Assembly: GCA_023137195.1 (NCBI GenBank)
Contig: JAGLPV010000001.1
Span: 42,242-106,241, forward strand
Length of the DNA stretch: 64,000 nucleotides
From: Candidatus Aenigmatarchaeota archaeon
GTDB lineage: Archaea; EX4484-52
Direction of reading: 5' to 3'
How positions within the stretch are numbered: position 1 is the first letter of the stretch; each line of letters starts with the position of its first letter. Positions 9,922 through 31,391 of this stretch are shown piece after piece. The notes beneath the pieces are model-generated. The model had not been told where the DNA came from, ran no database searches, and saw nothing but the letters and a program-made list of their open reading frames with translations. A program made the position numbers and the translations under genes.

Positions 9922-11121
9922 TTATTTATGTAAATTAATACTGATGGCTCCTATTTTATATGCCCCGCTGGTTTCAATAGAGATTTGATTCATTCCCATC
10001 ACAAATGCAGAAACATTCAGGGGGATAGAATAAGTGTCCGGGTTTGGGTTGTTCAATTGTGTTTTAAATTTATTTAAGATTAATTTAACGGGACGCTTCA
10101 TTGTTGTTTCATCTATTGTAACATTCATTTCCACTTTGTTTTTTCTCATTAATTTTATGTCGCTTTCATGCAGGTAAAAAGAATATTTCTTGTTTGAAAC
10201 AGTGTCTGTATCATAGTATTTTACTGATAGATGGACATTATTTAGAATATAGCCGGAATCTTTGTTGGTGGAAAAAATAACAATATTTTCTTTCGGCATC
10301 ATCTGCGCTTCCAGGTTGGAGAAGGTTTCTTCATATTTTTCCAGGGGGAGCGGCTTTTGGCTATATATTATGTTGTTGTTGATTATTACCTGCAGAGGGC
10401 TGTTTCTCACTGCATCTTCAACAACAAAATCAAGTACACCTACATTCCAACCGTCTATTTCATAATTTTCCAAAGGGATAGGGAATGTTTTTTCTATGGT
10501 GTCTTTTTGGGCAGATATCCTGAAATTCTCAATAACATACTCTGTTTTGCCTATGATATTTTCTGATTTACCGGCACTTATTTCTATTTCATGCGTATTT
10601 GTTAAATTCATGTATTCTATTGGTATTGAAAAACTGACCGGTCCGCCTTTTTTGGAGGAATATGCTGTATTGTTGTTGACACTAATTGTTAAGTCACCCA
10701 TAGAATGATATTTTGCATTTAAATCAAATTCAATGAAAATATCCTTGTATTTGGCGGGCGTTACGAAAGATATCTTTCTTGTTTGTTCTGAAAGTAAGTT
10801 GTTTTTGATTGTAATTTCTTCTTTTATCTCTTTTATTGTTTTTCTTTCCTGGATGTCTTCTGAAGTAAGTTTTATTCCTTCTTCGCCGCCGAGGTTAAAT
10901 ATCCTTCTTGCCGGCTTTACAGAGCCCAGAGTACCTACATCCCTGGAGAAAAAGACGGTTTTTTTTGATCCGAATAAGAAACTAAAAAATCCGCCATTGC
11001 TACTACTATAAGAAGCAGAAGTATCTGATGAAATTCCGCCCCCTCCATTGGACGAGGCTATGAGTACAAAGGCACAATAAGCCAATACCATGCCCATTAT
11101 TGCTTTTGAAAACAAATCCAT
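9922..11121 (-). CDS. Membrane-anchored/secreted protein, unknown function
   Basis: 399-aa ORF with an N-terminal hydrophobic anchor, a Gly/Ser-rich linker, then a beta-rich-looking Asn/Ile/Lys-rich body. It lies 2 nt upstream of the DUF116-like gene. No recognisable motif. Confidence 0.6.
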   Translation of the reverse strand: MDLFSKAIMGMVLAYCAFVLIASSNGGGGISSDTSASYSSSNGGFFSFLFGSKKTVFFSRDVGTLGSVKPARRIFNLGGEEGIKLTSEDIQERKTIKEIKEEITIKNNLLSEQTRKISFVTPAKYKDIFIEFDLNAKYHSMGDLTISVNNNTAYSSKKGGPVSFSIPIEYMNLTNTHEIEISAGKSENIIGKTEYVIENFRISAQKDTIEKTFPIPLENYEIDGWNVGVLDFVVEDAVRNSPLQVIINNNIIYSQKPLPLEKYEETFSNLEAQMMPKENIVIFSTNKDSGYILNNVHLSVKYYDTDTVSNKKYSFYLHESDIKLMRKNKVEMNVTIDETTMKRPVKLILNKFKTQLNNPNPDTYSIPLNVSAFVMGMNQISIETSGAYKIGAISINLHK

Positions 11122-17639: not shown

Positions 17640-18686
17640 TTAATAGCCTTCTTTGAACTCTACGTCAAATTCTTCTAAAATGATTCCGTTTTCATTGACT
17701 GCTTCTCCTATAATAGAAGCTTTGATTCCCTGTTTTTTTAGCACATCAATAATTTTATCGGCTTCTTTTGCGATAATCACGAAGCCAACGCCCATGTTGA
17801 AAGTTCTGAACATTTCTTTGTTGTCGACATTGCCTTTTTCCTGCATTGTTTTAAATATGGGTGGTATCTCTACCCACTTGTCTATTTTGTATCCGATTTT
17901 GTCATTTAACCGGGCAATGTTTAATATTCCGCCGCCTGTGATGTTTGCCAGCCCGGTAATGTCATTAAAGCATTTGTCCAACACATCCAGGACGGGCTTT
18001 ACATATATTGTTGTGGGGGTTAATATTTGCGGGGCGTATTTTTCAATATCTTCTTTGTTGCCGAGCAATACTTTTCTTGCCAGGGTTATGCCGTTTGTGT
18101 GGATGCCTGAACTTGCCAGTCCGATTATTTTATCTCCTGCCTTTATTTTATCTCCAAGAACGACTTTGTCTTTATCTACAGTTCCCAGGACTGCACCGGC
18201 TAAATCAAAACCTTTGTCGTCAATCCCGTTTATCACTTCTTTTAATGTTGCGGTCTCCCCGCCGACAATTGCAATTTCTGCCTGCCTTGCTCCTTCGCAT
18301 AATCCTTTGCCGAGTTCTAATGCCTGTTTTTGTGAATTTTTCCCGTCTGTTTTTGTCATTGCGAGGTAATCTACTAAGCTTATGGGTTCTGCGCCGAGGC
18401 ATATTACGTCATTTACGCACATTGCAATCATGTCTATGCCGACTGTGTCGTATTTGTCAATGAGTTGTGCTACAAGCACTTTTGAGCCCACTCCGTCTGT
18501 TGAAAGGACGAGGTACTTGTCGCCGAATTCTATTAAATTTGCAAAGTGTCCTATTTTTGACTTTACTGCTCCTACTTTGTTGTTTCGGAATTCCAGGGTT
18601 TTGCTGACTGCTGATACAAGGGATTTAATTGTGTCGGCTTCTTCATTAAAATTGACTCCTGCTTTTGCGTATGTCATTTGTTCCAT
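17640..18686 (-). CDS. purM: Phosphoribosylformylglycinamidine cyclo-ligase (AIR synthetase, PurM)
   Basis: YAKAGVN..., DGVGSKV, DMIAMCVNDV and GGETA motifs. 348 aa. Confidence 0.93.
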   Translation of the reverse strand: MEQMTYAKAGVNFNEEADTIKSLVSAVSKTLEFRNNKVGAVKSKIGHFANLIEFGDKYLVLSTDGVGSKVLVAQLIDKYDTVGIDMIAMCVNDVICLGAEPISLVDYLAMTKTDGKNSQKQALELGKGLCEGARQAEIAIVGGETATLKEVINGIDDKGFDLAGAVLGTVDKDKVVLGDKIKAGDKIIGLASSGIHTNGITLARKVLLGNKEDIEKYAPQILTPTTIYVKPVLDVLDKCFNDITGLANITGGGILNIARLNDKIGYKIDKWVEIPPIFKTMQEKGNVDNKEMFRTFNMGVGFVIIAKEADKIIDVLKKQGIKASIIGEAVNENGIILEEFDVEFKEGY

Positions 18687-18739
18687 AACATTAATCTATT
18701 TAGATGGTTTTTTATTTTTATCTAATAATTGATTATAAT

Positions 18740-18885
18740 TCAATTAGTCCGACAGTATCTCACTAATTGGTTTTTTTGTCCTTCAAATCCTTCGGGAATT
18801 TCAACTAAAAAGGAGGGTGGCATTTTGCCCCCATCCTTCTGCAAAGCTCTTATCTCTTTACCGGTGGTTTTTTAAATATCTTTCG
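18740..18885 (-). pseudogene. Decayed Bro-N/DinD-like gene fragment (repeat copy 1)
   Basis: The minus-strand reading is ...YLKNHR*RDKSFAEGWGQNATLLFS*, which parallels YLKDMRRRDESFAEGWGQIATPLSVE of the Bro-N ORF at 21.3 kb. It contains an in-frame stop and a 1-nt indel. Confidence 0.55.
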
Positions 18886-19274
18886 GCTACCAACGCCTCG
18901 GAAAATTTGCCGCTGGCAACTGCTTTGATGAAATTAAGCTCCATGTTAACAAAATCCATCTCTGTCTTGTCTTCGGCTTCTACATGCTTTCTTAATTCTT
19001 CCTTGCTGGATGTCCCCTCATCTGCAGATAATTTGAAATATTCCGGCACGCTGGTCTCCAGACGCCACAATACTATCTTTTTGATTTCCTCGTCAAGTTT
19101 TTTATCATTTGTCATATTATCCCCGTTCTCCAGCATTTTTATGATTTTTTCGCCAAGTTCAGAATTGTTTTTTACTTCAATCATTGCCGCATTCCATGCG
19201 TATGGTTCATCATCAATCACCACAATCACATCCTCTTTGCGGATTTTTTCAAGAAGGTTAGCATATATTCTCAT
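18858..19274 (-). CDS. Hypothetical protein (138 aa), possibly the 5' part of a disrupted chimeric gene
   Basis: Intact ORF with an acidic helical composition. Only its last codons (YLKNHR) and the 3' flank are homologous to the Bro-N gene. No other motif was recognised. Confidence 0.45.
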   Translation of the reverse strand: MRIYANLLEKIRKEDVIVVIDDEPYAWNAAMIEVKNNSELGEKIIKMLENGDNMTNDKKLDEEIKKIVLWRLETSVPEYFKLSADEGTSSKEELRKHVEAEDKTEMDFVNMELNFIKAVASGKFSEALVAERYLKNHR

Positions 19275-19359
19275 GAACTTTGCTTTTTTTGTCTTCCATG
19301 TATGATTTATACGTGCAGAATATTTAACTGTTTAACGCGCGCGCTATTTGAAAAATCAT

Positions 19360-19435
19360 TTATTTTCTTTCTCTAATTTTTTTCGTATTTTCCTTTAAAT
19401 CCAGATAATTATCCGGTGAAACTATATTTTTCCTA
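19360..19435 (-). pseudogene. Relic of a DinD/Bro-N-like gene C-terminus
   Basis: The minus-strand reading is ...NIVSPDNYLDLKENTKKIRERK*, which parallels IVSQDNYLDLKENRKKLEEKS* at 20574-20640. The ~60-nt stretch 19369-19430 is a near repeat of 20586-20645. The open frame (19360-19578) has no ATG. Confidence 0.5.
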
Positions 19436-19675
19436 TTTTGTGTCTTCAGTTTCAACCGTCGACAAATTGTCGATAACTCAATTTCGCTTGGTTCTGATTC
19501 TCTTTTTTCACAATATGCCAACGATTTTAGTTGTACGATTTTATCGTACGGTTCAAATCCTTCTTCTTTGAGTTTTATTTATTGTGGGGTTTAATGCCCT
19601 GTTGCTTGTGGTGGAATGTTATATTTTGTCTGAATTGATACTCTGAAGCTCTGTTTAGGGTTATTTATTGAGAAT

Positions 19676-19870
19676 TTATGAACTTTTAGATGCATTTTGT
19701 AAATTATTCAAATCAACATATTCAGATTCTGGAGTTTGTCTTGTTTCTTTTAATTCTTTTTTGGCATGGTCGCTTAATTCGTAATCCTCTTTAAGCGTGT
19801 TTTTGATAAATTCTATATCTATCTTCATTTCAAGCAGTTCCTGATGGAGTGTTTCAATTGAGATTGCCAT
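19676..19870 (-). CDS. Small hypothetical protein (64 aa, helical/charged)
   Basis: The track ORF is trimmed to the ATG at 19870 (MAISIETLHQELLEMKIDIEF...). Repeat copy 2 lies immediately upstream. Possibly antitoxin-like, but no motif supports that. Confidence 0.4.
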   Translation of the reverse strand: MAISIETLHQELLEMKIDIEFIKNTLKEDYELSDHAKKELKETRQTPESEYVDLNNLQNASKSS

Positions 19871-19911
19871 ATGGAGTATAATGGACGATAAAATTATATG
19901 GTTATGTTGCA

Positions 19912-19952
19912 GTTCAACTAAAAAGGAGGGCGGCAATTTGCCTCCACCCTTC
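19912..19952 (-). repeat. Bro-N core repeat, copy 2 (gene relic)
   Basis: gttcaactaaaaaggagggcggcaatttgcctccacccttc. The minus strand reads SEGWRQIAALLFS*. Homologous to 18799-18845 and 21268-21313. Confidence 0.6.
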
Positions 19953-19992
19953 GCTAAAATTATTGTAGATTTTCATGACATAAAAATAGAAA

Positions 19993-20199
19993 CTAAACGC
20001 TTAAAACCTCGATAGGGGTGCTTTTGTTTGCGTGTTTTAAAACATTGAGTTTTTCAAATCCAATTATGTTATTATTTTTGTCTTTTTTTAGTATTACTTC
20101 CTCTCCTGTTTCTTCGCAAATAAACTCTTTTTTTGCGTCATCAAACCATACATCTAAAGTATTTGTTTGGGTGTTTAATATGACTTTTATTTTTTCCAT
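19993..20199 (-). CDS. DUF2283-like small protein (putative antitoxin-type partner)
   Basis: 68 aa. MEKIKVILNTQTNTLDVWFDD...EETGEEVILKKDKNNNIIGFEKLNV matches the DUF2283 (YuzE-like) pattern. It overlaps the upstream gene by 13 nt. Confidence 0.65.
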   Translation of the reverse strand: MEKIKVILNTQTNTLDVWFDDAKKEFICEETGEEVILKKDKNNNIIGFEKLNVLKHANKSTPIEVLSV

Positions 20200-20522
20200 A
20201 TTTCTTCTCCTTCTTTTATTTTGTCTGTAATATATGTGGTTATGAGTATTTTTTTGATTTTATTTACAACCACGCATATATAACGCGGCTTATTATTATA
20301 AACTATTCTCCTGTAAATTAAATATACATTCTCGTCTGTTTTGCTTTGCCTTATTATTTCAGGGTCTTCTAATGTTTTTATGATGTCTTTTTCTTTGTTT
20401 TTCATCATAGGGTGTTTAATTGTGATAATATAATCCCAATAGCTTTCTGAAAGAGAGATGCTGGTATTCAAACGAGTCATTATCTCAAATTTTATTGTTT
20501 TTTTAACTGGCTTATTTTCCAT
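20187..20522 (-). CDS. Putative toxin-like protein (DUF4258/RelE-barnase-like layout)
   Basis: 111 aa. ...HPMMKNKEKDIIKTLEDPEIIRQSKTDENVYLIYRR...YICVVVNKIKKILITTYITDKIKEGEEIW resembles small toxins found paired with DUF2283. Assigned by pattern and pairing only. Confidence 0.5.
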   Translation of the reverse strand: MENKPVKKTIKFEIMTRLNTSISLSESYWDYIITIKHPMMKNKEKDIIKTLEDPEIIRQSKTDENVYLIYRRIVYNNKPRYICVVVNKIKKILITTYITDKIKEGEEIWKK

Positions 20523-20573
20523 ATTATGATTTTATTGTTTTCTTTTTACTGATTATTATAAATCCAATATTTT

Positions 20574-21474
20574 TCAACTTTTTTCCTCTAATTTCTTCCT
20601 ATTTTCCTTTAAATCCAGATAATTATCCTGGGAGACTATTTTTATTCCAAAACTCTTTTCTGCATCAATTCTTGCCCTTCCTGCGACTTTTCCGCCTTCT
20701 ATTGCTGTATCTTTGTTTTGGATAAAGCCCTGCGCATCTTTCTTTCGTGTTGCTTCTGTTGTTAATTTCTCGCCCAGCATTGAAAAGATAAGCTCTAAAT
20801 CAGCCATCCTAAAAAACCCGAAGGGGTTTTTGGGACACCAAAAATCTATGATTTTTGCGTGTGTGATCCCTTAAATTCTGGTTTTTGAATTTTGGGTCGA
20901 GTCCTTTAATTTGTTTGTGCGCTTTAATAGGGACTCCGAAAGTGGCTTTGGAGATTTCATTTGTCAGGATTGCGTAATCTCTTTTTTCTTCTATTCCTCT
21001 GTTTTTCCACTCTTCTGTTAATTCCTGTCTTATGGCGATTCCTCTTAAGCGTTTGTCAATCCAGTCTTTTGGGTATCCTTTTAATTCGTAGTATTCTTTT
21101 GCCCTGTCCTGTGCGAGTTCAGGGTTTTGAATTTCCTGTATTCTTTCGTATCCGACTTTTGCGAGCCATTGCTTGAATGGTTCTGCTTTGAGGGAAGGGA
21201 TTGATTGGATAAGACGAAAAGCTCCTTTCGTGGAGACGCAATTGAGCTTCTGAAGACCTCCGGCAGTTTCAACTGAAAGGGGGGTGGCAATTTGCCCCCA
21301 TCCTTCTGCAAAACTTTCGTCTCTTCGTCTCATGTCCTTTAAATATCCTTTTGGGTCTTTGCTGTCAGTGAGGATGGCAATGATGTCTGCGGCAACAAAC
21401 CACCATTCGTCATTAAACCATGTTCTTCTGATTTTTTGTCCCTCGAATATTGCAAGTGAGTTGGTTTGGTTCAT
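20574..21474 (-). pseudogene. Bro-N / DinD-like (DNA-damage-inducible protein D family) gene split by a 55-nt insert
   Basis: The 5' ORF (20809-21474) has the Bro-N core FAEGWGQIATPLSVETAGGLQKLNCVSTKGAFRLIQSIPSLKAEPFKQWLAKVGYERI. It reads ...NLRDH, then runs into 17 junk codons and a stop. The 3' ORF (20574-20807) starts MADLELIFSMLGEK..., which is the expected continuation. The insert at 20808-20862 forms two hairpins. Confidence 0.7.
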
Positions 21475-21477
21475 ATT

Positions 21478-22794
21478 TTACCTAAATTTAGTCCAATTAA
21501 AGCCTTTATCATGGCTTTTTTCAAGATATATTCCTTTATATCCGAGTATTTCTAACATAAATCTTTCAAAAATATTTAATGCTAAATAATATGCTTTTGT
21601 AGTTTTTTTAAAAGTTATTTTTTTAATTGGATTTTTTGATTTTCCTTCATGAATAACTAAATTTCTAATATCTATTAGAAGTTTCAAATTTTTTTCAGAG
21701 TATCTAAATTTTTCTAGATTAAAAATTTCTTCTAAAATTTCTTTAAAACTTTTTTTAATTCGCTTTCCTTTTTTATTTTTTATATAATTTCCTTTATTAT
21801 CTCTTTTATGTTCGTCAATCAAACAACTTTTAATATATCTTTCTTTCAATGCTTCAAACAAGATTGCAATTAGTGCAAATTTTGCCTCTAATGTAACGCA
21901 ACGAAAAGATTCTATGTAAAATTCAATTAAATCGTGAAAGTCATTGATTTTATTTAAAATCGCTTCAAAATTTGGATATGTTTTTTCAATAACATCAGAA
22001 ATAGGATTTGAATAACTAAATCGAAGAATGCCATCATTTTCCGAATAAGGATATTTTTTATCATCAAAATAAATTCTCTTTAAGGCATTATCTTGTACAA
22101 TTTCAATTTTTTCTAAAGAAACATAGTTTGCAGTATAGAATGACAATAAATACAACAACTGATGTATAGTTTTTGTTTTATTAGAAATATAAATAGAATT
22201 AGTTTCGAATCGAATAATAGCAGTAGTCTGACATATTCCATAATACTCTAAAAGATCTTTAGAATTTTTATCATAATAGTATGGACATACCCTATATTTT
22301 TGTTTGTCAATAAAAAAATCCCTTTTGTAAACACTTATTTTTCCAAGATTCATATTATTCAAATAATATCTTACTTCTTTTTTGCCTCTAATAAATTTGC
22401 CTTCTTTTATTTCTAAATCACATGGAAGAAATTTCCATATTTGACGCCCTTCTGACCCACATAGAATATTTTTTTTAATTACAATTTTCTCTTCATTTTC
22501 ACTTATGCCTTCAAATCGGAATATTTTTTTTGATATTTTTTCGTCTATATCTAGAAAAATATTATTATCCGAATATAAAAAAAACTCTTTAACTCCATTA
22601 GAATAAATAATTAATCGAAAATTACCAGATATTACCAAACCCTTTTTATTAATTGTTTTGCCTTTGCCAGAATATTCTTCAGATTTTTTAATTTGCTTTT
22701 TTTGTTCCGCACATGTTTTTTTTAGTTCTTCGTTTTCTTTTCTTAATTTTTCATTTTCTTCCACAAGATTATTATTTTCTTCTATTTTACTCAT
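21478..22794 (-). CDS. Coiled-coil protein with a C-terminal HEPN-like Rx4H motif (candidate ApeA-like abortive-infection RNase)
   Basis: 438-439 aa. N-terminal heptad-like EENEKLRKENEELKK. The C-terminal helical region contains LEAKFALIAILFEALKERY and IDIRNLVIHEG (RNLVIH at 21649-21666). Its ATG at 22794 overlaps the TGA of the upstream 34-codon ORF. Coding status is solid; the function is hypothesis. Confidence 0.75.
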   Translation of the reverse strand: MSKIEENNNLVEENEKLRKENEELKKTCAEQKKQIKKSEEYSGKGKTINKKGLVISGNFRLIIYSNGVKEFFLYSDNNIFLDIDEKISKKIFRFEGISENEEKIVIKKNILCGSEGRQIWKFLPCDLEIKEGKFIRGKKEVRYYLNNMNLGKISVYKRDFFIDKQKYRVCPYYYDKNSKDLLEYYGICQTTAIIRFETNSIYISNKTKTIHQLLYLLSFYTANYVSLEKIEIVQDNALKRIYFDDKKYPYSENDGILRFSYSNPISDVIEKTYPNFEAILNKINDFHDLIEFYIESFRCVTLEAKFALIAILFEALKERYIKSCLIDEHKRDNKGNYIKNKKGKRIKKSFKEILEEIFNLEKFRYSEKNLKLLIDIRNLVIHEGKSKNPIKKITFKKTTKAYYLALNIFERFMLEILGYKGIYLEKSHDKGFNWTKFR

Positions 22795-22898
22795 CACAAC
22801 CCTCCTTCAACAACTTTAATCTCATCATCATTTAGCTCATACAACAGATAAACCATTCTGTCAATTTCCTTGTCGGTTTCATCTATTTTTTCTTCCAT
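22794..22898 (-). pseudogene. 34-codon relic/mini-ORF duplicating the C-terminal tail of a type IIG methyltransferase
   Basis: MEEKIDETDKEIDRMVYLLYELNDDEIKVVEGGL* compares with the RM C-terminus LKEKIDETDREIDKMVYKLYGLSNEEIGIVEGL* (23551-23655). A ~45-nt nucleotide core is nearly identical. Confidence 0.55.
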
Positions 22899-22933
22899 CT
22901 CATCACAATAATTTTTTTGTTATTTTCATACTT

Positions 22934-23554
22934 TTAATATATGTTGAATCGTTCTCTCAATATGCATCTTGTTTGCTCTAAACTATAAAGCAATCCTTTT
23001 TTATCAGAATTGTCATTTATTATATCCATTATTTTTAAATGATAATAATTGTAAATTTTATCTTTTAAAATAAAATCATATCTTTTGTTTTTGGAGTTTA
23101 TGAAAACATTAAAAGAATCTTGTATTTTTATCATCATGAAATTGATAATGCGGGATTTATCTTCTATTCGATTTATGTATTTTTTTAAATCATTTGTTGA
23201 TCTTTTATCAATTTCATAATCGAGAATACGATAATACAACGATTCATTAGGTAATGGTAATAAATAAAAGGGAATGGATTGTTTTTTATAAGATTCTATC
23301 ATTTTTTCAATTTCATCAATCTTATATTTTAGTGTCCTTAATTGAGCTTTTTGATTTTTATCATGTTCTGATTTTTTAATCCATTCAGCTCCAATAAAAA
23401 TCATGATTGCAAACACTATAGAAATTATTGTAACCGACCCTGCGTGTTTGTCAAAAACTTCAATTAAATAATGAAAGTTACTATATATTAGAGTTAATAA
23501 TATTCCTAAAAAGAGTCCAAATAGGAAATAAATATAATTCTTTTTTTCCATCAT
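22934..23554 (-). CDS. Two-TM membrane protein with a helical cytoplasmic domain, unknown function, coupled to the RM gene
   Basis: 206 aa with hydrophobic segments YIYFLFGLFLGILLTLIY and VTIISIVFAIMIFIGAEW. Its ATG overlaps the RM stop (ATGA at 23551-23554). Confidence 0.7.
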   Translation of the reverse strand: MMEKKNYIYFLFGLFLGILLTLIYSNFHYLIEVFDKHAGSVTIISIVFAIMIFIGAEWIKKSEHDKNQKAQLRTLKYKIDEIEKMIESYKKQSIPFYLLPLPNESLYYRILDYEIDKRSTNDLKKYINRIEDKSRIINFMMIKIQDSFNVFINSKNKRYDFILKDKIYNYYHLKIMDIINDNSDKKGLLYSLEQTRCILRERFNIY

Positions 23555-26500
23555 AATCCCTCAACAATCCCAATTTCTTCATTACTCAATCCATACAATT
23601 TATAAACCATTTTGTCAATTTCCCTATCCGTTTCATCTATTTTTTCTTTCAGTTCTATTAATTCCTTTTTTCGCTCTTCAAAATACCCATCCCATTCATC
23701 CTGCTGTTTTAGAGACAGATTTATTTTTTGCTTTTTCAATTCGCCCAAAAAATCGGCAAAATTCAGATTAAAGAATTTATCTAATTTTTTTGTAATTTTT
23801 TCTAAATTTAAATTCTGCTTTAGTCGGCTTAAAAATTTGTTTTTCTTATTGTAAAAGTCCTTATTTAAATCAAGCATTATATCTGCTTTTTCTATGAATA
23901 GAGTTTGTTTTTCAATATCTATTTTTTTAATCGGAAATTTCCTCAAATCATTTAAAATTATTTTTGGAAACATTTTTCTAACAGATTTAGCCGTACTCTT
24001 TAAGAAATAATAAGACATTAAACTACTATTGAGTATAACCAATATATATTTCAAAGAAATATTTGTTCCTTCTTTTTCTATGATGGCAATATTGCTCCGA
24101 TTGAATAAATATAATTCATCACTAAATGTTGATATAATAGATTTCGGGAATGTTCCTGTAATTTCTCGTATAATTAGTTTAGATCCAGAAAATATATTAA
24201 ATGTTCTGGGGGCGGCAAGATGCTCGCCATATTTTAAATATAAATCACGCCAATTCAAATAATATCTTCCTACATCTTTTCCGTCCAAATATTTATGCGT
24301 GTCTTTATCATATTTGTAATTGAAATCATATGGTCTCTTTTTCACATCTTCTGCTGTTTGTTTGGGATTTCCTTTTCCATCTTCGTATGCTTGTAAACCT
24401 GCTTTTATGGTTGTTAAATCATTCAAGATACTTGAATTTGCTTTTAGTTTATTTAATAGTTTTTTGCTGTTATCATCAAAAAATACTTTAAATTCAAAAT
24501 CATCATCATTCTTAAAATCTTCTTGATTTTTTGAATGCGAGAATTCAAATAGTTTTCCTCTGCTCATTAAAATATTTATTTTATTAGTTTTTGTGTTTTG
24601 TTTTTTTGCATTAAAAATTATGGTTTCTACATTTACTCCTTCAAATGAATAACCAGATAAATTTATTATCTCTTTGATTTCGGAGGTTTTTAATATATAT
24701 TCTCTTAATTTCTTTGCAGAATTTACCATTAGCCAAGCATTTGGGACAATTAATCCATAATTCCCAGAATTCTTTAATAGAGCTATAGATTTCTCGATAA
24801 ATAATACATAAGTATTTACTTGATATTGGGCAGAATCATAATTGGACGAGTAATAATTTTTCTCTTCTTCGGATATTTTTTCTCTGGCAAAAATGTAAGG
24901 CGGATTCCCCACAACAACATCAAACCCGCCTTTCTCAAAAATCTCTTTAAACTCATCTCCCCACTTAAACGCCTTTTTCCCGGCAACTGCCTCATCATCA
25001 ATCAATGAATTTCCGCATTTGATATTTTCAGACAAACTGATTAATTTCTTGTTTTTTCTGGCAATTTTCAAAAACAGGGACAATTTTGTAATTTCAACAG
25101 ATTCTTCATTCAAATCCACGCCGAAAATATTATTCTGGATTATTTCCTTTGCCTCTTCCTCTTCGCTCCATTTTTTAAGCATTAATTGATTTTTTCCTTT
25201 GCTAAATGATGTGTATTGTCCGCTGTCCTGCTTGAACAGCCCGATTTCCCTGTGGATTTCCAGAAGAACATCAACTGCTTTTATCAAAAAAGCACCACTG
25301 CCGCAGGCAGGGTCAAGTATTTTTATATTGGCAAATTTTTCCTCAAGTTCTCTCATATTGCCGGAATATTCCAGAACCAGCTCTTTTGGAGTTTTGGCGG
25401 ATTTCTTTGACAAATAAGGGATGATGGTATTCCTGCAAATATAGTCTGTGATATATTCAGGAGTGTAAAATATGCCTTCCTTTTTTCTTTTTGAAATTTT
25501 GGATTCTTTCAGCGCATCTATATCGCTGAGGGACTGCTCGAAAATATGCCCGAGTATATTGACGCTGACCTCTGTCTTAAAGTCAAAAGAAGCCATCAAT
25601 AAAATGTTTTTCACTATCGGGTTTATTTTCCCGCTGTATTTGTCAATTGACTTTTGGGTGATTTCATCCAGATTTGCATCCTTTGCAAGACTGGAATTCT
25701 GGTAAATTTCAGAAAAAAAGCCCTTGTCCCGCATATCCTTAAAATAGATTTTCCGGGGTATCGGCATCCTGAAAAATTCCCCATTGAATCCGAATATTTT
25801 TATAGGGGTCGAAGCCCCTTTGTCAAGAGATAAAAACAAATCCGTTATTGAATCGCAGATGTAATGAGAATGCTCTGATATTGGCGTTGATTCCACTATA
25901 TTTACGACCCTGTCTTCAAAAATCCTTTTAGGAAGTTTGTCTGTGTCTTCTGCAAAAAAGATAAACATCAGGCGATTCAAAAATATCTGCGCAAAATGAA
26001 TGGGAGTATTTACTTTGTCGTGAAGCTCCTCGTTTTCTGCAAATTCCTTTATCAGCATCAGGCGGGTTTCATGAAACAATTTGTAAAATTCCTTTGTAAA
26101 GTTCTTTTCCTCTTTGATTGATTCATTTTCTGCTTTTTGGACAAAACCGCTTTCAATGCTTTTTTTGCCAAAAACAGCAATAAATTCCTTTAGTTTGCTG
26201 TCGCTGTTTTTGATGTCGAGAAAATCAAATATATGGTATTTGTCGTAGCTTTTGCCTCTATCGAACAAAACAAAATGCCTGTAATTTGTAAGAATGCCGT
26301 AAGGTATTTCGTATTTGCTCAAATAATCCCATATCTGGTTTACAGGCGTTGCTCTTGTTTTTGTATCTCTGCCCTGATATGCCCATAAATCTTTTGTTTT
26401 TGCGCCTTTTGCCTCAAAGCAAACCAATTTTTTTGAGTTTGAATCATTGAAAAGAAATTCAATATTGTGCCTTTCAAAATCAAAGTTTTTTGTGTTGTAG

Positions 26501-26679
26501 TCCAGTAAATTGTTTAATATTGTATCTGCAAACCTGAAATAATTTTTCTTCTCATCCTCTAATTTGTTATTTTCCAGCAATTCAATCCATTTTTTAGCAG
26601 CTTTTTTTTGCGATGCAGACGGCAAAGTATCAGAGCAAAGTTTTTCAAGAGTTTTTGGCTTGAACAAATTAGTTTCCAT
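23551..26679 (-). CDS. Type IIG (single-chain, Eco57I/MmeI-like) restriction endonuclease / N6-adenine DNA methyltransferase
   Basis: The N-terminus has a PD-(D/E)xK-like VCFEAKGAKT plus GILTNYRHFVLFD. The AdoMet motif ILDPACGSGAFL is at 25288-25317. The catalytic GNPPY has its NPPY at 24895-24906. A long C-terminal target-recognition region ends in the MVYKLYGLSNEEI tail. The start is probably METNLFK at 26679; the track start is 26697. Confidence 0.85.
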   Translation of the reverse strand: METNLFKPKTLEKLCSDTLPSASQKKAAKKWIELLENNKLEDEKKNYFRFADTILNNLLDYNTKNFDFERHNIEFLFNDSNSKKLVCFEAKGAKTKDLWAYQGRDTKTRATPVNQIWDYLSKYEIPYGILTNYRHFVLFDRGKSYDKYHIFDFLDIKNSDSKLKEFIAVFGKKSIESGFVQKAENESIKEEKNFTKEFYKLFHETRLMLIKEFAENEELHDKVNTPIHFAQIFLNRLMFIFFAEDTDKLPKRIFEDRVVNIVESTPISEHSHYICDSITDLFLSLDKGASTPIKIFGFNGEFFRMPIPRKIYFKDMRDKGFFSEIYQNSSLAKDANLDEITQKSIDKYSGKINPIVKNILLMASFDFKTEVSVNILGHIFEQSLSDIDALKESKISKRKKEGIFYTPEYITDYICRNTIIPYLSKKSAKTPKELVLEYSGNMRELEEKFANIKILDPACGSGAFLIKAVDVLLEIHREIGLFKQDSGQYTSFSKGKNQLMLKKWSEEEEAKEIIQNNIFGVDLNEESVEITKLSLFLKIARKNKKLISLSENIKCGNSLIDDEAVAGKKAFKWGDEFKEIFEKGGFDVVVGNPPYIFAREKISEEEKNYYSSNYDSAQYQVNTYVLFIEKSIALLKNSGNYGLIVPNAWLMVNSAKKLREYILKTSEIKEIINLSGYSFEGVNVETIIFNAKKQNTKTNKINILMSRGKLFEFSHSKNQEDFKNDDDFEFKVFFDDNSKKLLNKLKANSSILNDLTTIKAGLQAYEDGKGNPKQTAEDVKKRPYDFNYKYDKDTHKYLDGKDVGRYYLNWRDLYLKYGEHLAAPRTFNIFSGSKLIIREITGTFPKSIISTFSDELYLFNRSNIAIIEKEGTNISLKYILVILNSSLMSYYFLKSTAKSVRKMFPKIILNDLRKFPIKKIDIEKQTLFIEKADIMLDLNKDFYNKKNKFLSRLKQNLNLEKITKKLDKFFNLNFADFLGELKKQKINLSLKQQDEWDGYFEERKKELIELKEKIDETDREIDKMVYKLYGLSNEEIGIVEGL

Positions 26680-26729
26680 TAGTATAAATACTCTCAAATC
26701 TTATAAATTTATTCAATATGCAAACGATT

Positions 26730-28082
26730 TTAAAACACCTCTAATTGCTCCCTATACAACTCAACATAATAATAAACTGCCTGCTTTATATCCCCGTATT
26801 TTGTTCCCCTTATATGCGAGTAGTATTTCTCCTTCATGTCATTATAAAATATTATTGGAAAATACCCATGCTTGATTAATATAAAGTTAAACAGCAATCG
26901 TGCAACTCTTCCGTTGCCATCGTCGAAAGGGTGAATATAAACAAATTGATTATGAACCACCAAAGCAAGCACTAATGGATGAAGTGTGTTGTTGTTTTTA
27001 TTATACCAATCGACCAATAACCTGACTCTTTCATCGACAAACTCAGGGGGAGTGGTATTATCAACAAGAATTCCTGAATCATTAATAACGCAATTATCCT
27101 CTATTTTATAATTGCCCGCAGATTCCCCGATACCCTGTTGAGTAGCTAAGTTTAGCTTTTTTATGAATTCAACAGTAAGCTCATTTGACGTATCAAAGAT
27201 ATTATCCAATGCAGTTCTTGAATTTGTAGTTTCCAATATTGCTTTTTTATCTTTTTTTACAAGCTCATTTCCTATGGTAAGAATAGTTCTTACATCCTGC
27301 ATAGTAAGAATGTTTCCTTCTATTTTATCAGTATTGTAAATATATTTTATTTTCCAATCTGTTATTCGTCTTTCTATCTCAAAAATATTTGAATAAAATT
27401 CTTTTCTCTTTTTCTCTGTTAGTACATCTATTACAGTAATAAGGGGAAAATCAGTTTCCCTTAATTTACTTAAGATAAAATCTTTCCCGTCTAAATAATG
27501 TTTTATGTTGAGTTCTGCTAATTCTTTAGATTGATCATCAGGGAGATGTTCTTTTTTTGCAGTAGTTGCTGAAAAAAATTTTATTACATCATGTCTATAC
27601 TCTTCCTCATCAAATTTTAAATCGATATCAAAAAAGTCTAATAACATTTTTGTTGGTTCTTCCCATGACCTAATAAGATAAATGACACTATTTCCTTTAT
27701 GAATAGAGTATATTATTCTTGTCTTTCTTGCGATGTCTTTAACTACTCTTAAATTATGATATGGAAGTTCATGTGATTTTAATGTTGGTTCAACACTAAA
27801 CCTTTGTAATATATTTTTTACATGAGTCGTGAATAATGATTCCGCATCCTGTTTGAAAATAGCAGTAATTGCTTCTATGATTTTTACTTTTGCGTTCATT
27901 TTATTTAGCGAATAAACACCTTTGCCCTCTTTTGTAATGTAATTCAAATTTTGTAATTTTCTTAAATACGGATGAATCCCGGAGTGATATTTTAGATTCA
28001 TTAAAATCGCTAATTCTTCCGAAGTATAACTTTCTTTATTGCCTAAACACATTTTTATTAATATTTTTATTTCTTTATTCAT
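26730..28082 (-). CDS. Fic-domain protein (putative AMPylase) with an N-terminal winged-helix domain
   Basis: The Fic motif HPFDDGNGRVAR is at 26898-26933. An intramolecular inhibitory-helix-type motif TDKIEG ([S/T]xxxE[G/N]) is at 27315-27332. The N-terminus is MarR-like wHTH (ELAILMNLKYHSGIHPYLRKLQNLNYITKEGKGVYSL). Confidence 0.88.
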   Translation of the reverse strand: MNKEIKILIKMCLGNKESYTSEELAILMNLKYHSGIHPYLRKLQNLNYITKEGKGVYSLNKMNAKVKIIEAITAIFKQDAESLFTTHVKNILQRFSVEPTLKSHELPYHNLRVVKDIARKTRIIYSIHKGNSVIYLIRSWEEPTKMLLDFFDIDLKFDEEEYRHDVIKFFSATTAKKEHLPDDQSKELAELNIKHYLDGKDFILSKLRETDFPLITVIDVLTEKKRKEFYSNIFEIERRITDWKIKYIYNTDKIEGNILTMQDVRTILTIGNELVKKDKKAILETTNSRTALDNIFDTSNELTVEFIKKLNLATQQGIGESAGNYKIEDNCVINDSGILVDNTTPPEFVDERVRLLVDWYNKNNNTLHPLVLALVVHNQFVYIHPFDDGNGRVARLLFNFILIKHGYFPIIFYNDMKEKYYSHIRGTKYGDIKQAVYYYVELYREQLEVF

Positions 28083-28221
28083 AATACCGTTATATATGAC
28101 CTTAAATTTATAAATGTGTGTGTATTTTTTAATAAATTAATAAATTTAATAATAATAAGAGTTAACATGTGTTAACAAATTAATAAAAATAATTATTCCC
28201 GTTCGGGTTTAATACATCAAT

Positions 28222-28998
28222 TCAAAACTCCTCTTCAACATACTTCACAGCATTCTCAAATATCGCCAGCCCTGAAGTCGAACCCACAGACTCATCCGAA
28301 GCCCGCTCTGGGTGAGGCATCATCCCAAGAATCGTCCCTGTCGAGTTGCATATCCCTGCAATATCATACACCGAACCATTAGGATTAAACGGATATTTCC
28401 CGTTTGCAGGTCTTGCTTTATCATCCCCGTAAATAAAGACAATCTGGTCATTTTCAATCAATTTCATCAGCAGTTCCTGAGATATCTTGAAATTTCCTTC
28501 CCCGTGAGCGATAGGCATCTTTAAAGTGCGGTCATAAGGAATTCCTTTTGCAAATATGCATTTCCCCCTGCTGGCATTAATCAAATTAACGCTCCTGCTC
28601 TCGAACGTCAGTTTTTCATTTGTTGCAAGAGCCGCCTGCTGTGTTTTGCTTATGCCGTCAATTCCCGGCAAAAGTCCTGCTTCGACCAATATCTGGAACC
28701 CATTGCAGATTCCGATTATCGGCTTTTTTGCATTTACAAATTCTTCAACATCGGCAGAAAGTTCCTTCATCAGTTTCTTTGCAAATACTACTCCTGAGCG
28801 GATATGGTCTGAATTTGAAAACCCGCCGGGAAATACCAAAATATGAAAGTCATTTAGTTTTTCTTCTTTTGACAGGAATTTGTTTAAGTGAATTACTCTT
28901 GAGTTTGCCCCGAGTTTATTGAAAATGTAGTTTGTCTCCCTGTCGCAGTTTGTGCCGGGTTCGCGCAGGACGCAGACTTTTATTTTATTTTTTTCCAT
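28222..28998 (-). CDS. purQ: Phosphoribosylformylglycinamidine synthase, glutaminase subunit (PurQ)
   Basis: Class I glutamine amidotransferase with nucleophile context GICNGFQIL and MPHPER near the C-terminus. Confidence 0.92.
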   Translation of the reverse strand: MEKNKIKVCVLREPGTNCDRETNYIFNKLGANSRVIHLNKFLSKEEKLNDFHILVFPGGFSNSDHIRSGVVFAKKLMKELSADVEEFVNAKKPIIGICNGFQILVEAGLLPGIDGISKTQQAALATNEKLTFESRSVNLINASRGKCIFAKGIPYDRTLKMPIAHGEGNFKISQELLMKLIENDQIVFIYGDDKARPANGKYPFNPNGSVYDIAGICNSTGTILGMMPHPERASDESVGSTSGLAIFENAVKYVEEEF

Positions 28999-29000
28999 AT

Positions 29001-31391
29001 TTATTTTAGACCTCCAAGCCAGCTTTGCTTTAATGTACCAATATCTTCATCTATTATGGTTTTTTCTTTTTCGCCTGTTTTAATTATCACTTTTTCTTCT
29101 TCAATTGTTTTTCCGACTAGAGATGCAAAGTCTCCCAGTTCCTGCTCAAACTTTTTTGCATTTCCTTTTTCAACTTCAACCAAAAACCTGCTGTTTGATT
29201 CTGAAAAGAGAATCTGGTAATCTTTGAGCGGTCTGTTGCATATTGCTTTTGACAAATCAATTTCTGCTCCGATGCCGTCAAAGCACATTTCCGAAAGGGC
29301 AACTGCAAGACCCCCTTCAGACAGGTCATGGCAGGTCAAGACAAGATTGCCATCCATTGCATTAATGAGCAGGTCGTATATTTTTTTTGCATGTTTTGTC
29401 CTGACTTTCGGGACATTTGCACCCAAAAATCCTTTAATTTTGTAAAAATGAGAACCGCCAAGTTCATTGCATGTTGTTCCAATTAGGTAAATATTGTTGC
29501 CGGGTTTTTTGAAATTCATAGATACTTTATTTTGAGCATCAGGGATTAACCCTATTGCAGTAATCACAAGTGTCGGAGTAACGGGACCTTCTTCAGACTG
29601 GTTGTACAGGCTGTCCTTTCCGCTGATGAAAGGAGTCTTGTATTCCATTGCTGTGTCGTAGCATGCCTGCGAGGCACGGACAAGACCGCCAAGATTTTGC
29701 GGTATCTGGGGATTGCCCCAAGAGTAATTATCCAATAGTGCAATTCTTCTTCCGCCGACAGCAGTGTTGTTCCTTACAGCTTCATCTATTGCTGAAGTTG
29801 CCATGTGATAAGGGTCGATTTTTCCGTATTCCGGGTTAAATCCGCATGATATTACAACGCCTTTTTTGCTCTTCAATAATGGTTTTACAACGCTTGCGTC
29901 TCCCGGGGAGTCTTCTTTTTTCCCGTGCAGAGGACCGAGGGCTGTTCCTGCCCTCACGGTTGAATCATAACTGTGGATTACTTTTTCCTTGCTTGCAACA
30001 TTCGGGGAAGACAATATTTTAGCTAACTCCTTATTGTAATTGTCGGATTCAACAATTTTTGGTTCTGATAAATCAGGTTTTTTCCATTCTGCTTTTTTGT
30101 AAGTATTTGGAACGGCGTTAAATAAAAAGTCAATATCTATGCTTGCGACTTCATCCCCCGCGTATTTCAGGACAAGATTTTTTTCTTCTGTGAATTCGCC
30201 TATTTTGACGACTTCAACATCTTCTGCTTCAAATATTTTGGCTACTTTTTCGTAATTTTCTTTTGGAACTAAAATAAGCATCCTTTCCTGTGATTCGCTT
30301 ATCCATATTTCCCATGGCTTTAATCCCTTGTATTTTAGAGGGACTTTGTCTAAATCCACAATTGTTCCCAGATCATAAGTATGGCACATTTCACCTACTG
30401 CTGAAGAAAGTCCGCCTCCGCCGAGGTCTGTTATGCCGGAGCCAAGGTTTTTTGCGCTAACTTCCATTATTCCTCTCATCACTTTTTCCTCTTCTATGGG
30501 GTCGCCTATCTGGACAGCAGAGCCGTTTATCTCTTCTGATTCTGTGCTTAAATTAGCAGATGCAAAAGATACGCCGTGTATGCCGTCTTTTCCGGTTCTT
30601 CCACCGACAAGAACCAGATAATCTCCGTTTTTTGCTTCTCTTACATATTTGCTTTTTTCCAACAGTCCGAAGCATCCGCAGAAGACAAGAGGGTTAGTAG
30701 TATAAGATTTGTCAAAATAAATTGCGCCGTTTACTGTGGGGATTCCCATCTTGTTGCCGTAATCTCCGATTCCCCGGACAACGCCTTTGAATAAATATTT
30801 TGGGTGTTTTGTGCCTTTTGGCAGGTTCTCATAACTCATGTCAGTATCTCCGAAGCAAAGTACATTTGTATTTGCAAATGGCTCTGCCCATACTCCTAAG
30901 ACATCACGGATGCATCCGCCAACGCCTGTTGCCGCTCCGCCAAATGGTTCTAAGGCAGAAGGATGGTTGTGCGTTTCAACTTTTACTGCAATGACATAAT
31001 CATCAACAAAATCCACCATGCCTGCATTGTCGTCAAACACGCTGAAGCACCAGGATCTGTCTAATTCTTTTGTTGCGCGCATGATTGTCTGCTTTAGCAT
31101 ATTTTTTAGTTTGCCTTCTTTGTCTAAAGTAATACTGTCTGTTTCCAAAACGTTTTTATCCATGTAAATGTCATGTCGGAATGTTTTGTGTATGCAGTGT
31201 TCTGACCAGGACTGGTTGAAAATTTCTATCTCAACATCTGTCGGGTTTCTCTGCTCTTTTGAAAAGTATTTCTGTATTTCAAGGAGTTCATCCTTGTTTA
31301 ATGCAAGGTTTCTTTGGGTGTTTATTTTGTTGAGTTCTTCTTCTGTCTTGCCTTGCATTTCTATTTCTCTGATGTCTTTGTTGTATTTCAT
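29001..31391 (-). CDS. purL: Phosphoribosylformylglycinamidine synthase II (PurL)
   Basis: 796 aa. ETHNHPSALEPFGGAATGVGG, duplicated PurM-like domains, and GGLSSAVGEM. Confidence 0.95.
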   Translation of the reverse strand: MKYNKDIREIEMQGKTEEELNKINTQRNLALNKDELLEIQKYFSKEQRNPTDVEIEIFNQSWSEHCIHKTFRHDIYMDKNVLETDSITLDKEGKLKNMLKQTIMRATKELDRSWCFSVFDDNAGMVDFVDDYVIAVKVETHNHPSALEPFGGAATGVGGCIRDVLGVWAEPFANTNVLCFGDTDMSYENLPKGTKHPKYLFKGVVRGIGDYGNKMGIPTVNGAIYFDKSYTTNPLVFCGCFGLLEKSKYVREAKNGDYLVLVGGRTGKDGIHGVSFASANLSTESEEINGSAVQIGDPIEEEKVMRGIMEVSAKNLGSGITDLGGGGLSSAVGEMCHTYDLGTIVDLDKVPLKYKGLKPWEIWISESQERMLILVPKENYEKVAKIFEAEDVEVVKIGEFTEEKNLVLKYAGDEVASIDIDFLFNAVPNTYKKAEWKKPDLSEPKIVESDNYNKELAKILSSPNVASKEKVIHSYDSTVRAGTALGPLHGKKEDSPGDASVVKPLLKSKKGVVISCGFNPEYGKIDPYHMATSAIDEAVRNNTAVGGRRIALLDNYSWGNPQIPQNLGGLVRASQACYDTAMEYKTPFISGKDSLYNQSEEGPVTPTLVITAIGLIPDAQNKVSMNFKKPGNNIYLIGTTCNELGGSHFYKIKGFLGANVPKVRTKHAKKIYDLLINAMDGNLVLTCHDLSEGGLAVALSEMCFDGIGAEIDLSKAICNRPLKDYQILFSESNSRFLVEVEKGNAKKFEQELGDFASLVGKTIEEEKVIIKTGEKEKTIIDEDIGTLKQSWLGGLK

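Follow-up and report, generated by a model that had tools for sequence, protein, structure and literature searches.

The 64,000-nt stretch analysed here (the window, in whose numbering all coordinates are given unless another locus is named) comes from contig JAGLPV010000001.1 of a Candidatus Aenigmarchaeota metagenome-assembled genome (MAG). It carries a close-set run of genes, all on the minus strand, that begins with a type IIG restriction-modification (RM) gene and ends with a gene for a HEPN-like protein. An earlier note on this DNA had read the run as a single composite defence module. Comparative analysis favors a mosaic of parts of known kinds, separately acquired, over a new integrated system. 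The features on which the argument turns are the following.

23551 to 26679, minus strand: type IIG RM gene, identified by Pfam and PADLOC matches and by alignment with an ortholog; the maximal open reading frame (ORF) extends to a TTG at 26697
22934 to 23554, minus strand: gene for a 206-amino-acid (aa) membrane protein of an orphan family, identified by hydropathy, its ATG overlapping the RM stop codon (ATGA)
22794 to 22898, minus strand: 34-codon orphan copy of the type IIG C-terminal tail, identified by direct repeat D1, amino-acid identity and its junctions
21478 to 22797, minus strand: gene for a 439-aa (438 from the ATG) YopA-like protein, described from an AlphaFold2 model, a family of 43 representatives and the source-database tags PF27216 and PF26308
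21649 to 21666, minus strand: the RNLVIH of that protein, an Rx4H catalytic-type motif (R378, N379, H383), seen in the translation and the family alignment

The type IIG enzyme, its membrane-protein neighbor and a gene scar

The maximal ORF of the RM gene (23551-26697) would encode 1048 aa from its TTG, as against 1042 aa from the ATG at 26679. This ATG aligns with M1 of the RM ortholog of another locus fetched for comparison (L003; these locus handles are our own) and lies about 30 nt downstream of a TATA-like TTTATAAG, so that the enzyme is probably 1042 aa long and the gene probably has a promoter of its own, past the Fic gene that precedes it. In order, the domains are an N-terminal PD-(D/E)xK-like nuclease, an MmeI-type helical spacer, a gamma-class N6-adenine methyltransferase (MTase) and a TaqI_C target-recognition domain, with a conserved helix, EIDxMVYxLYGL, at the C-terminus. 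Pfam matches are to Eco57I (8e-46), N6_Mtase (1e-20), TaqI_C (2.7e-19, residues 802-923), MmeI_Mtase (6e-15) and MmeI_hel (2e-6), those to Eco57I, MmeI_Mtase and MmeI_hel being above the Pfam cut-off, and the PADLOC model REase_MTase_IIG matches residues 82-821 at 2.9e-79, spanning both nuclease and methyltransferase. Motif I of the MTase reads DPACGSGAF (GSG at 25294-25302) and motif IV GNPPY (NPPY at 24895-24906); the nuclease motif is E..E95-A-K97 (EAK at 26407-26415), and the match to HSDR_N_2 is weak (17 bits vs. a cut-off of 25). The L003 enzyme (1039 aa) is 49% identical over its full length. Domain matches and motif positions thus agree with the earlier note, which had recognized a single-chain enzyme by its PD-ExK-like, GSG and NPPY motifs; by these signatures the gene encodes a genuine type IIG RM enzyme, with both cleavage and methylation predicted.

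Type IIG enzymes of the MmeI/Eco57I type likewise combine an N-terminal nuclease, an MmeI spacer, a gamma-class N6-adenine MTase with GSG and NPPY motifs and a TaqI_C domain in one polypeptide; what the window adds to them is a conserved gene for a protein with two transmembrane (TM) helices, located downstream and translationally coupled. We know of no described type IIG system that includes a coupled 2-TM gene, and a literature search for a type IIG enzyme with a membrane partner returned nothing relevant. Identification of the RM gene as BREX PglX or DISARM DrmMI was considered and rejected: the matches to these are strong but partial, confined to the MTase core and far under the NCBIfam cut-offs (118.9 vs. 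500), and among the ORFs of the surrounding island, all of which are accounted for, there is no PglZ, BrxC, BrxL or DrmA/B/C-type gene.

The junction between the RM stop and the start of the 206-aa gene reads ttATGAtgg (ATGA at 23551-23554), and hydropathy places two hydrophobic segments around residues 16 and 48, in keeping with the overlap and the two TM segments given in the earlier note. The two N-terminal TM helices are followed by a conserved soluble domain of about 140 aa. No match to the protein was found in Pfam, NCBIfam, PHROGs, PADLOC or the PDB, where a profile search came back empty, and among 5.8 billion proteins its family accounts for just 8 clusters. Wherever a locus of this family carries an organism name, the name is Woesearchaeota, Nanoarchaeota or the Aenigmarchaeota MAG of the window itself; the family is an orphan, restricted to DPANN archaea.

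Gene neighborhoods were compared in 27 fetched loci, of which 8 are informative for the 206-aa family and about 6 for the 439-aa family. In the closest clade (50-55% identity to the window protein) the gene immediately upstream of the 2-TM gene is of type IIG in 4 of 4 loci, drawn from two phyla: the window, L003, L006 and L007. At L003 the 1039-aa RM ortholog is joined to the 2-TM gene as TAGgATG, while at L006 and L007 the 2-TM gene follows a different, 870-aa type IIG enzyme, the two RM architectures being only 39% identical in the MTase core. These last three are versions of one Woesearchaeota locus, with DUF2779 genes that are 65-84% identical, and the 2-TM genes of L003 and of L006/L007 are 72-78% identical despite the different RM types, which indicates that the RM gene was exchanged in place while the 2-TM gene stayed.

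Remnants of such exchanges appear to be preserved as well. A 35-nt gap separates the 206-aa gene from the 34-codon ORF, which the earlier note had taken for a duplicate of the RM C-terminal tail. Direct repeat D1 pairs 22803-22924 with 23557-23678 (122 nt, 72% identity, with a 47-nt core at 91%), and tblastn within the window aligns the relic with the RM tail at 67% over 33 aa (E = 1e-7), so that duplication rather than chance accounts for the likeness. In amino-acid identity the relic stands at 70% to the tail of the window enzyme and 74% to that of L003, that is, to the 1040-aa RM type. Its 3' end carries a Shine-Dalgarno-like GGAGG, 8 nt before the start of the 439-aa gene, and its TGA overlaps the ATG of that gene as gTGATGa, a junction that the earlier note had read correctly and that implies that a full-length type IIG gene once ended here, its stop overlapping the start of the HEPN-like gene. 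L003 has an intact 88-codon orphan tail ORF (its positions 10766-11032, plus strand) after its 2-TM gene, the same position that the scar takes in the window; this second scar derives from the 870-aa RM type, as found in L007 (52% over 83 aa), and not from the RM gene upstream of it. No downstream tail copy is present in L006 or L007. Judged from these alignments, the 34-codon ORF is a genuine scar, left by a type IIG gene that was either rearranged or present earlier; on the simplest reading, type IIG genes at these loci have been replaced or deleted again and again, leaving 3' remnants behind. Campbell-type insertion of a circle bearing the tail and the 2-TM gene was rejected as a general mechanism because the L003 scar is of the other RM type, none of the RM tails is chimeric and scars are lacking at L006 and L007. 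The near-identical nucleotide patches in the tail copies were likewise set aside as independent evidence of recombination, since identical peptides and AT-biased codon usage give the same result.

A rather unlikely alternative is that the 206-aa gene is unrelated to restriction: it would be a hitch-hiking or mobile "tail" gene that lands promiscuously right behind varied genes in the accessory regions of DPANN archaea, with the RM-tail copies as by-products of its insertion or recombinational exchange. Its persistence in the Woesearchaeota locus while the RM type differs would suit such a gene, as would the RM-tail sequences that flank it on both sides in the window and in L003, and its very low G+C content at third codon positions (GC3; 0.20, compared with 0.38-0.44 in the pur genes that border the island). 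The more distant clades point in the same direction: in L016, L017/L018, L019 and L020/L021 the partners to which the 2-TM gene is joined, no less tightly, are small TM-anchored or bPH-domain genes of unrelated kinds, and an integrase gene adjoins the homolog in L017. This alternative is harder to square with constant pairing to type IIG genes throughout the closest clade, across two phyla, and with the lack of a downstream tail copy in L006 and L007; the unmixed RM tails, and an L003 scar of a different RM type from the gene upstream of it, speak against simple Campbell-type insertion. The pairing of the 2-TM gene with type IIG genes is real in one clade, and the 206-aa family as a whole is not RM-specific; the association with RM genes that the earlier note wished to see in gene neighborhoods therefore holds for the closest relatives and fails in the other clades.

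In two of the distant loci the genes upstream of the 2-TM homologs (L016, 217-726, and L017, 1107-1679) share a 38-aa N-terminal TM anchor that is 79% identical and have unrelated C-terminal domains, a layout that resembles polymorphic surface or toxin proteins. L016 runs on into a type IV pilus-like cluster (T2SSE/T2SSF).

The HEPN-like protein and its relatives

A word-indexed search brought up a single relative of the 439-aa protein (46% identity), and when 1.84 billion representatives were searched exhaustively with an HMM, the family came to just 43 proteins at E <= 1e-3. In the family alignment R378 and H383 are both present in 42 of 42 sequences, N379 in 36 and E315 in 41, and G422 is near-invariant. 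A HEPN RNase site consists of an Rx4-6H motif with a polar residue after the arginine, together with an upstream acidic residue (PMC3710099), and by the conservation of these four residues the family has the features of such a site; E315, which lies in a helix at 303-323, has the spacing E-x2-K as compared with the typical Ex3[KR] (PMC3710099). Among the 43 aligned members Pfam matches are to HEPN_RiboL-PSP (7 members) and HEPN_Apea (5), with E-values down to 2e-5 for these two, and to DUF3644 (5), which is listed as a HEPN family (PMC3710099); one member matches the Csx1/Csm6 HEPN model. The family consensus exceeds the cut-offs for both HEPN_RiboL-PSP (29.8 vs. 28.4 bits) and HEPN_Apea (26.1 vs. 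24.4), covering positions 7-118 of the 136 in the latter profile.

An AlphaFold2 model built with the 43-sequence alignment is confident (pLDDT 90.6, pTM 0.87); one built with a 2-sequence alignment (pLDDT 39) was discarded. The coiled coil by which the earlier note had characterized the protein is there, at residues 2-34 and in this copy only. The rest is of a different nature: a beta-rich region (38-172), an alpha/beta subdomain (179-243), a C-terminal domain that is helical at 266-418 (the HEPN-like domain, aa ~262-420), with RNLVIH in a helix at 368-384, and a terminal beta-hairpin. The HEPN assignment proposed in that note holds by sequence, through the invariant arginine and histidine and the consensus matches to Pfam, whereas whole-chain fold comparison, which returned no HEPN structure, neither bears it out nor speaks against it; RNase activity is predicted.

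Catalogs offered little further help. Against PADLOC the consensus and nine members had no match at E <= 1, and the window's own protein none at E <= 0.1; the 206-aa protein is unmatched there as well, and the comparison with defense-system models suggested in the earlier note thus came up empty for both proteins as far as PADLOC goes. NCBIfam and PHROGs contained nothing meaningful for the 439-aa protein, the family has no BLAST-level match in phage genomes, and the viral contigs are without relatives. The source-database tags on the protein and its relatives, YopA_M (PF26308) and YopA_C (PF27216), are precomputed and in some cases weak or faint; we take the name to come from YopA of the Bacillus prophage SPbeta, and a literature search on YopA and SPbeta found no function described.

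Two known systems invite comparison. ApeA, too, is a single polypeptide with sensor and HEPN effector, and the family consensus matches the Apea-like HEPN model of Pfam. ApeA has its active-site residues in core helix H3 of the HEPN domain, and is about 580 aa long and mostly alpha-helical, with N-terminal, Mid and HEPN domains (bioRxiv 10.64898/2026.01.26.701840, 10.64898/2026.03.20.713152). The motif of the 439-aa protein, like that active site, sits in a long helix; membership in ApeA was nevertheless rejected, given the length of 439 aa, the beta-rich N-terminal half and the lack of a PADLOC match, the ApeA model included. PrrC, which is embedded in the type Ic RM locus EcoprrI, and the other RM-linked HEPN clades resemble the window in having a HEPN protein with an Rx4H motif beside an RM system and Fic/DOC genes nearby; links to RM systems have been described for at least 16 HEPN clades, and Fic/DOC genes are often found with them (PMC3710099). 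PrrC and RloC themselves were rejected as identifications, since neither Pfam nor NCBIfam nor the model has an ABC-ATPase in the 439-aa protein, whose N-terminal region is beta-rich, where an N-terminal ABC-ATPase fused to the HEPN domain would be needed. Unlike PrrC in EcoprrI, moreover, the HEPN gene of the window is separated from the present RM gene by another gene and a scar, and has relatives that occur without any RM gene.

The neighborhoods of these relatives are varied. The closest homolog (P0002, at L001) is found 67 nt past a res gene that belongs to a type III RM system with the order mod, 212-aa ORF, res; the locus has no 2-TM gene. P0009 shares its island with genes for an integrase, an ArdC-like protein and RlaP and has no RM gene nearby, and P0042 is on a bacterial chromosome, beside a DUF4062-STAND protein; these loci (L009 and L023-27) are RM-free. 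The other contigs with members are too short to inform on neighbors. The 439-aa family is thus represented in defense or mobile islands, sometimes but not obligately linked to RM genes. Two details of these loci may be recorded: the 212-aa ORF between the type III mod and res genes of L001 (1487-6713, with the 439-aa homolog downstream of res) is uncharacterized, and at L023 (9888-12956) the STAND-type neighbor of the bacterial YopA-like member is 1022 aa long, with DUF4062, AAA_16 and TPR, a defense-island signature.

The surrounding island

18687 to 28221, no strand assigned: accessory island of about 9.5 kb, delimited by ORF lists, repeats D2-D4 and GC3
26730 to 28082, minus strand: gene for a SoFic-like protein of the Fic/DOC family (450 aa), marking the upstream edge of the island
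20574 to 21474, minus strand: Bro-N/PDC-S13-like gene, in two ORFs of 221 and 77 aa in different frames, starting 3 nt past the stop of the 439-aa gene

The island is low in GC and lies between purM (17640-18686) on one side and purQ/purL (28222-31391) on the other. From the SoFic-like Fic gene its order is RM gene, 206-aa gene, scar, 439-aa gene, split Bro-N/PDC-S13 gene, a DUF4258/DUF2283 pair and at least two decayed Bro-N fragments. The Fic protein matches Pfam Fic (6e-17) and the PADLOC models SoFic (2e-27) and PDC-S04 (5e-30), and its translation shows an HPFDDGNGR motif and a long N-terminal extension. Fic/DOC genes often accompany RM-linked HEPN neighborhoods (PMC3710099), and SoFic and PDC candidates are enriched in DPANN archaea (PMC12988326).

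The earlier note placed a Bro-N/DinD-like gene 3 nt beyond the 439-aa gene; the spacing is right, and the gene turns out to be split between two frames. Against the 286 positions of PADLOC PDC-S13 it matches at 5e-81 over 1-206 and at 2e-17 over 204-277, with a Pfam Bro-N match of 1e-12, and a GC-rich hairpin with a T-run (AAAACCCCTTCGGGTTTTTT) lies exactly at the frame break. The split could reflect a pseudogene, a small insertion or a frameshift error in the MAG assembly. A Bro-N piece of 58-75 nt is present in three copies at 72-79% identity (18796-18883, 19909-19966 and 21263-21350), and the 3' end of the gene is duplicated at 77% (19352-19429 vs. 20566-20643); these extra copies imply at least two further decayed Bro-N/PDC-S13 genes in the island and point to repeated gene turnover. 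The overlapping DUF4258 (111 aa, a weak match) and DUF2283 (68 aa) genes at 19993-20522, minus strand, look like a toxin-antitoxin pair.

GC3 falls to 0.14 in the 439-aa gene, whose total GC is 23%. Along the RM gene it runs from 0.39 in the 5' nuclease part through 0.29 in the MTase part to 0.23 in the target-recognition domain and tail, a slope (23551-26679) that may mark a mosaic gene, the 3' part of which arrived with the 2-TM gene. Taken across the island, the contrasts in GC3 fit recent and mosaic acquisition. With the SoFic-like and PDC-S13 genes lending it defense-like surroundings, the region is best explained as a horizontally acquired defense island in the chromosome of a small symbiotic archaeon, Candidatus Aenigmarchaeota (DPANN).

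Separable modules or one system

The account that we favor, with moderate confidence, is of juxtaposed, exchangeable modules that together follow a layered logic of restriction and HEPN activity. The first module would be the type IIG enzyme, cutting unmethylated incoming DNA and methylating the cell's own, with the translationally coupled 2-TM protein as a partner that may modulate or localize it. The second would be the YopA-like protein, a single-protein sensor-effector in which the beta-rich N-terminal region might sense some cue of infection and the C-terminal HEPN domain, probably as a dimer, would cleave RNA, giving an abortive or growth-arrest back-up. Between the two, the 34-codon scar would be what recombination or deletion left of a type IIG gene whose stop once overlapped the HEPN start. 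Immunity would then be layered, RM first and HEPN RNase second, as in PrrC/EcoprrI, with the layers as separable parts; the genes may be co-transcribed, and some interaction of the RM enzyme with the 2-TM or the HEPN-like protein is conceivable.

Several observations weigh against this account. The 439-aa protein of the window, taken alone, reaches only a sub-threshold match to DUF3644 (23.1 bits vs. a cut-off of 27.6). Whole-chain Foldseek comparison of its model with the PDB and BFVD found nothing at E <= 1e-3 and no HEPN structure, the only weak matches being of its N-terminal domain to PNPOx-like or PilZ-like split barrels, and a PDB profile search with the family was empty. The role of the 2-TM protein as a membrane-anchored accessory or regulator is a guess, and the sample of informative neighborhoods is small. 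Finally, the stop/start coupling of the HEPN gene to the scar and the type III RM system beside the closest homolog could mean that the HEPN protein does depend functionally on RM.

A more elaborate synthesis, which we think distinctly unlikely, would make the 2-TM protein a true partner of the type IIG enzyme, either anchoring or gating restriction at the point of entry of foreign DNA, the membrane of an episymbiotic cell, or acting as an effector in the membrane, set free once the RM enzyme is disabled; the RM tail would serve as a portable homology handle by which RM bodies and downstream cassettes (2-TM gene, HEPN gene) are swapped, leaving orphan tail ORFs as footprints.

The proposal of the earlier note, that the RM enzyme, the 2-TM protein and the HEPN-like protein make up one dedicated, co-expressed system in which RM guards or triggers membrane and RNase effectors, appears quite improbable. 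It can draw on the shared strand, the overlapping or 3-nt junctions and the lack of a T-run after the 206-aa gene, on the coupling of the HEPN start to a type IIG tail, on the recurrence of the RM/2-TM pair, on the place of the closest 439-aa homolog after a res gene and on the precedent of PrrC/EcoprrI. Yet the trio is repeated in none of the fetched loci: L003 has the RM and 2-TM genes and no 439-aa homolog, and L001 has an RM system of type III and no 2-TM gene. The only coupling that the HEPN gene has today is to the scar, not to the RM gene, GC3 differs among the parts, and no PADLOC model matches the accessory genes, which, with the lack of recurrence, also led us to reject assignment to a named multi-gene system of RM, membrane protein and HEPN. 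The overlapping stop and start codons from which co-expression had been argued turn out to carry little weight, since compact junctions are typical of this genome (a 2-nt gap between purL and purQ, a 13-nt overlap between the DUF4258 and DUF2283 genes) and are thus weak evidence of functional coupling at the locus. It is very improbable that the 439-aa gene, perhaps together with everything downstream of it in the island, has lost a former RM partner and is now decaying without being expressed: although the gene adjoins a scar, no promoter is identifiable ahead of it and its Bro-N neighbor is split, with more Bro-N fragments nearby, its 1.3-kb ORF is intact at a GC content where stop codons arise easily, all family-invariant residues are kept, the AlphaFold2 model is confident and GGAGG stands 8 nt before the start.

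Exchangeable modules thus remain the preferred reading, and most of the parts involved are of known kinds (type IIG RM, RM-associated HEPN toxin, SoFic, PDC-S13); because RM-linked HEPN toxins have been recognized since 2013, the locus does not overturn current ideas. What is new lies in the detail: a DPANN-specific membrane protein found repeatedly right after type IIG genes, and the sequence footprints of RM turnover, with RM genes replaced at one locus while their neighbors stay. In DPANN archaea, whose genomes are small, few defense systems have been recognized apart from SoFic, AbiE and candidate PDC genes (PMC12988326). The rare family that joins a beta-rich domain to a HEPN domain, found in archaeal and bacterial defense islands, is a candidate for a single-gene abortive-infection system not covered by current catalogs, and with it the locus adds concrete, testable items to the archaeal defense repertoire.

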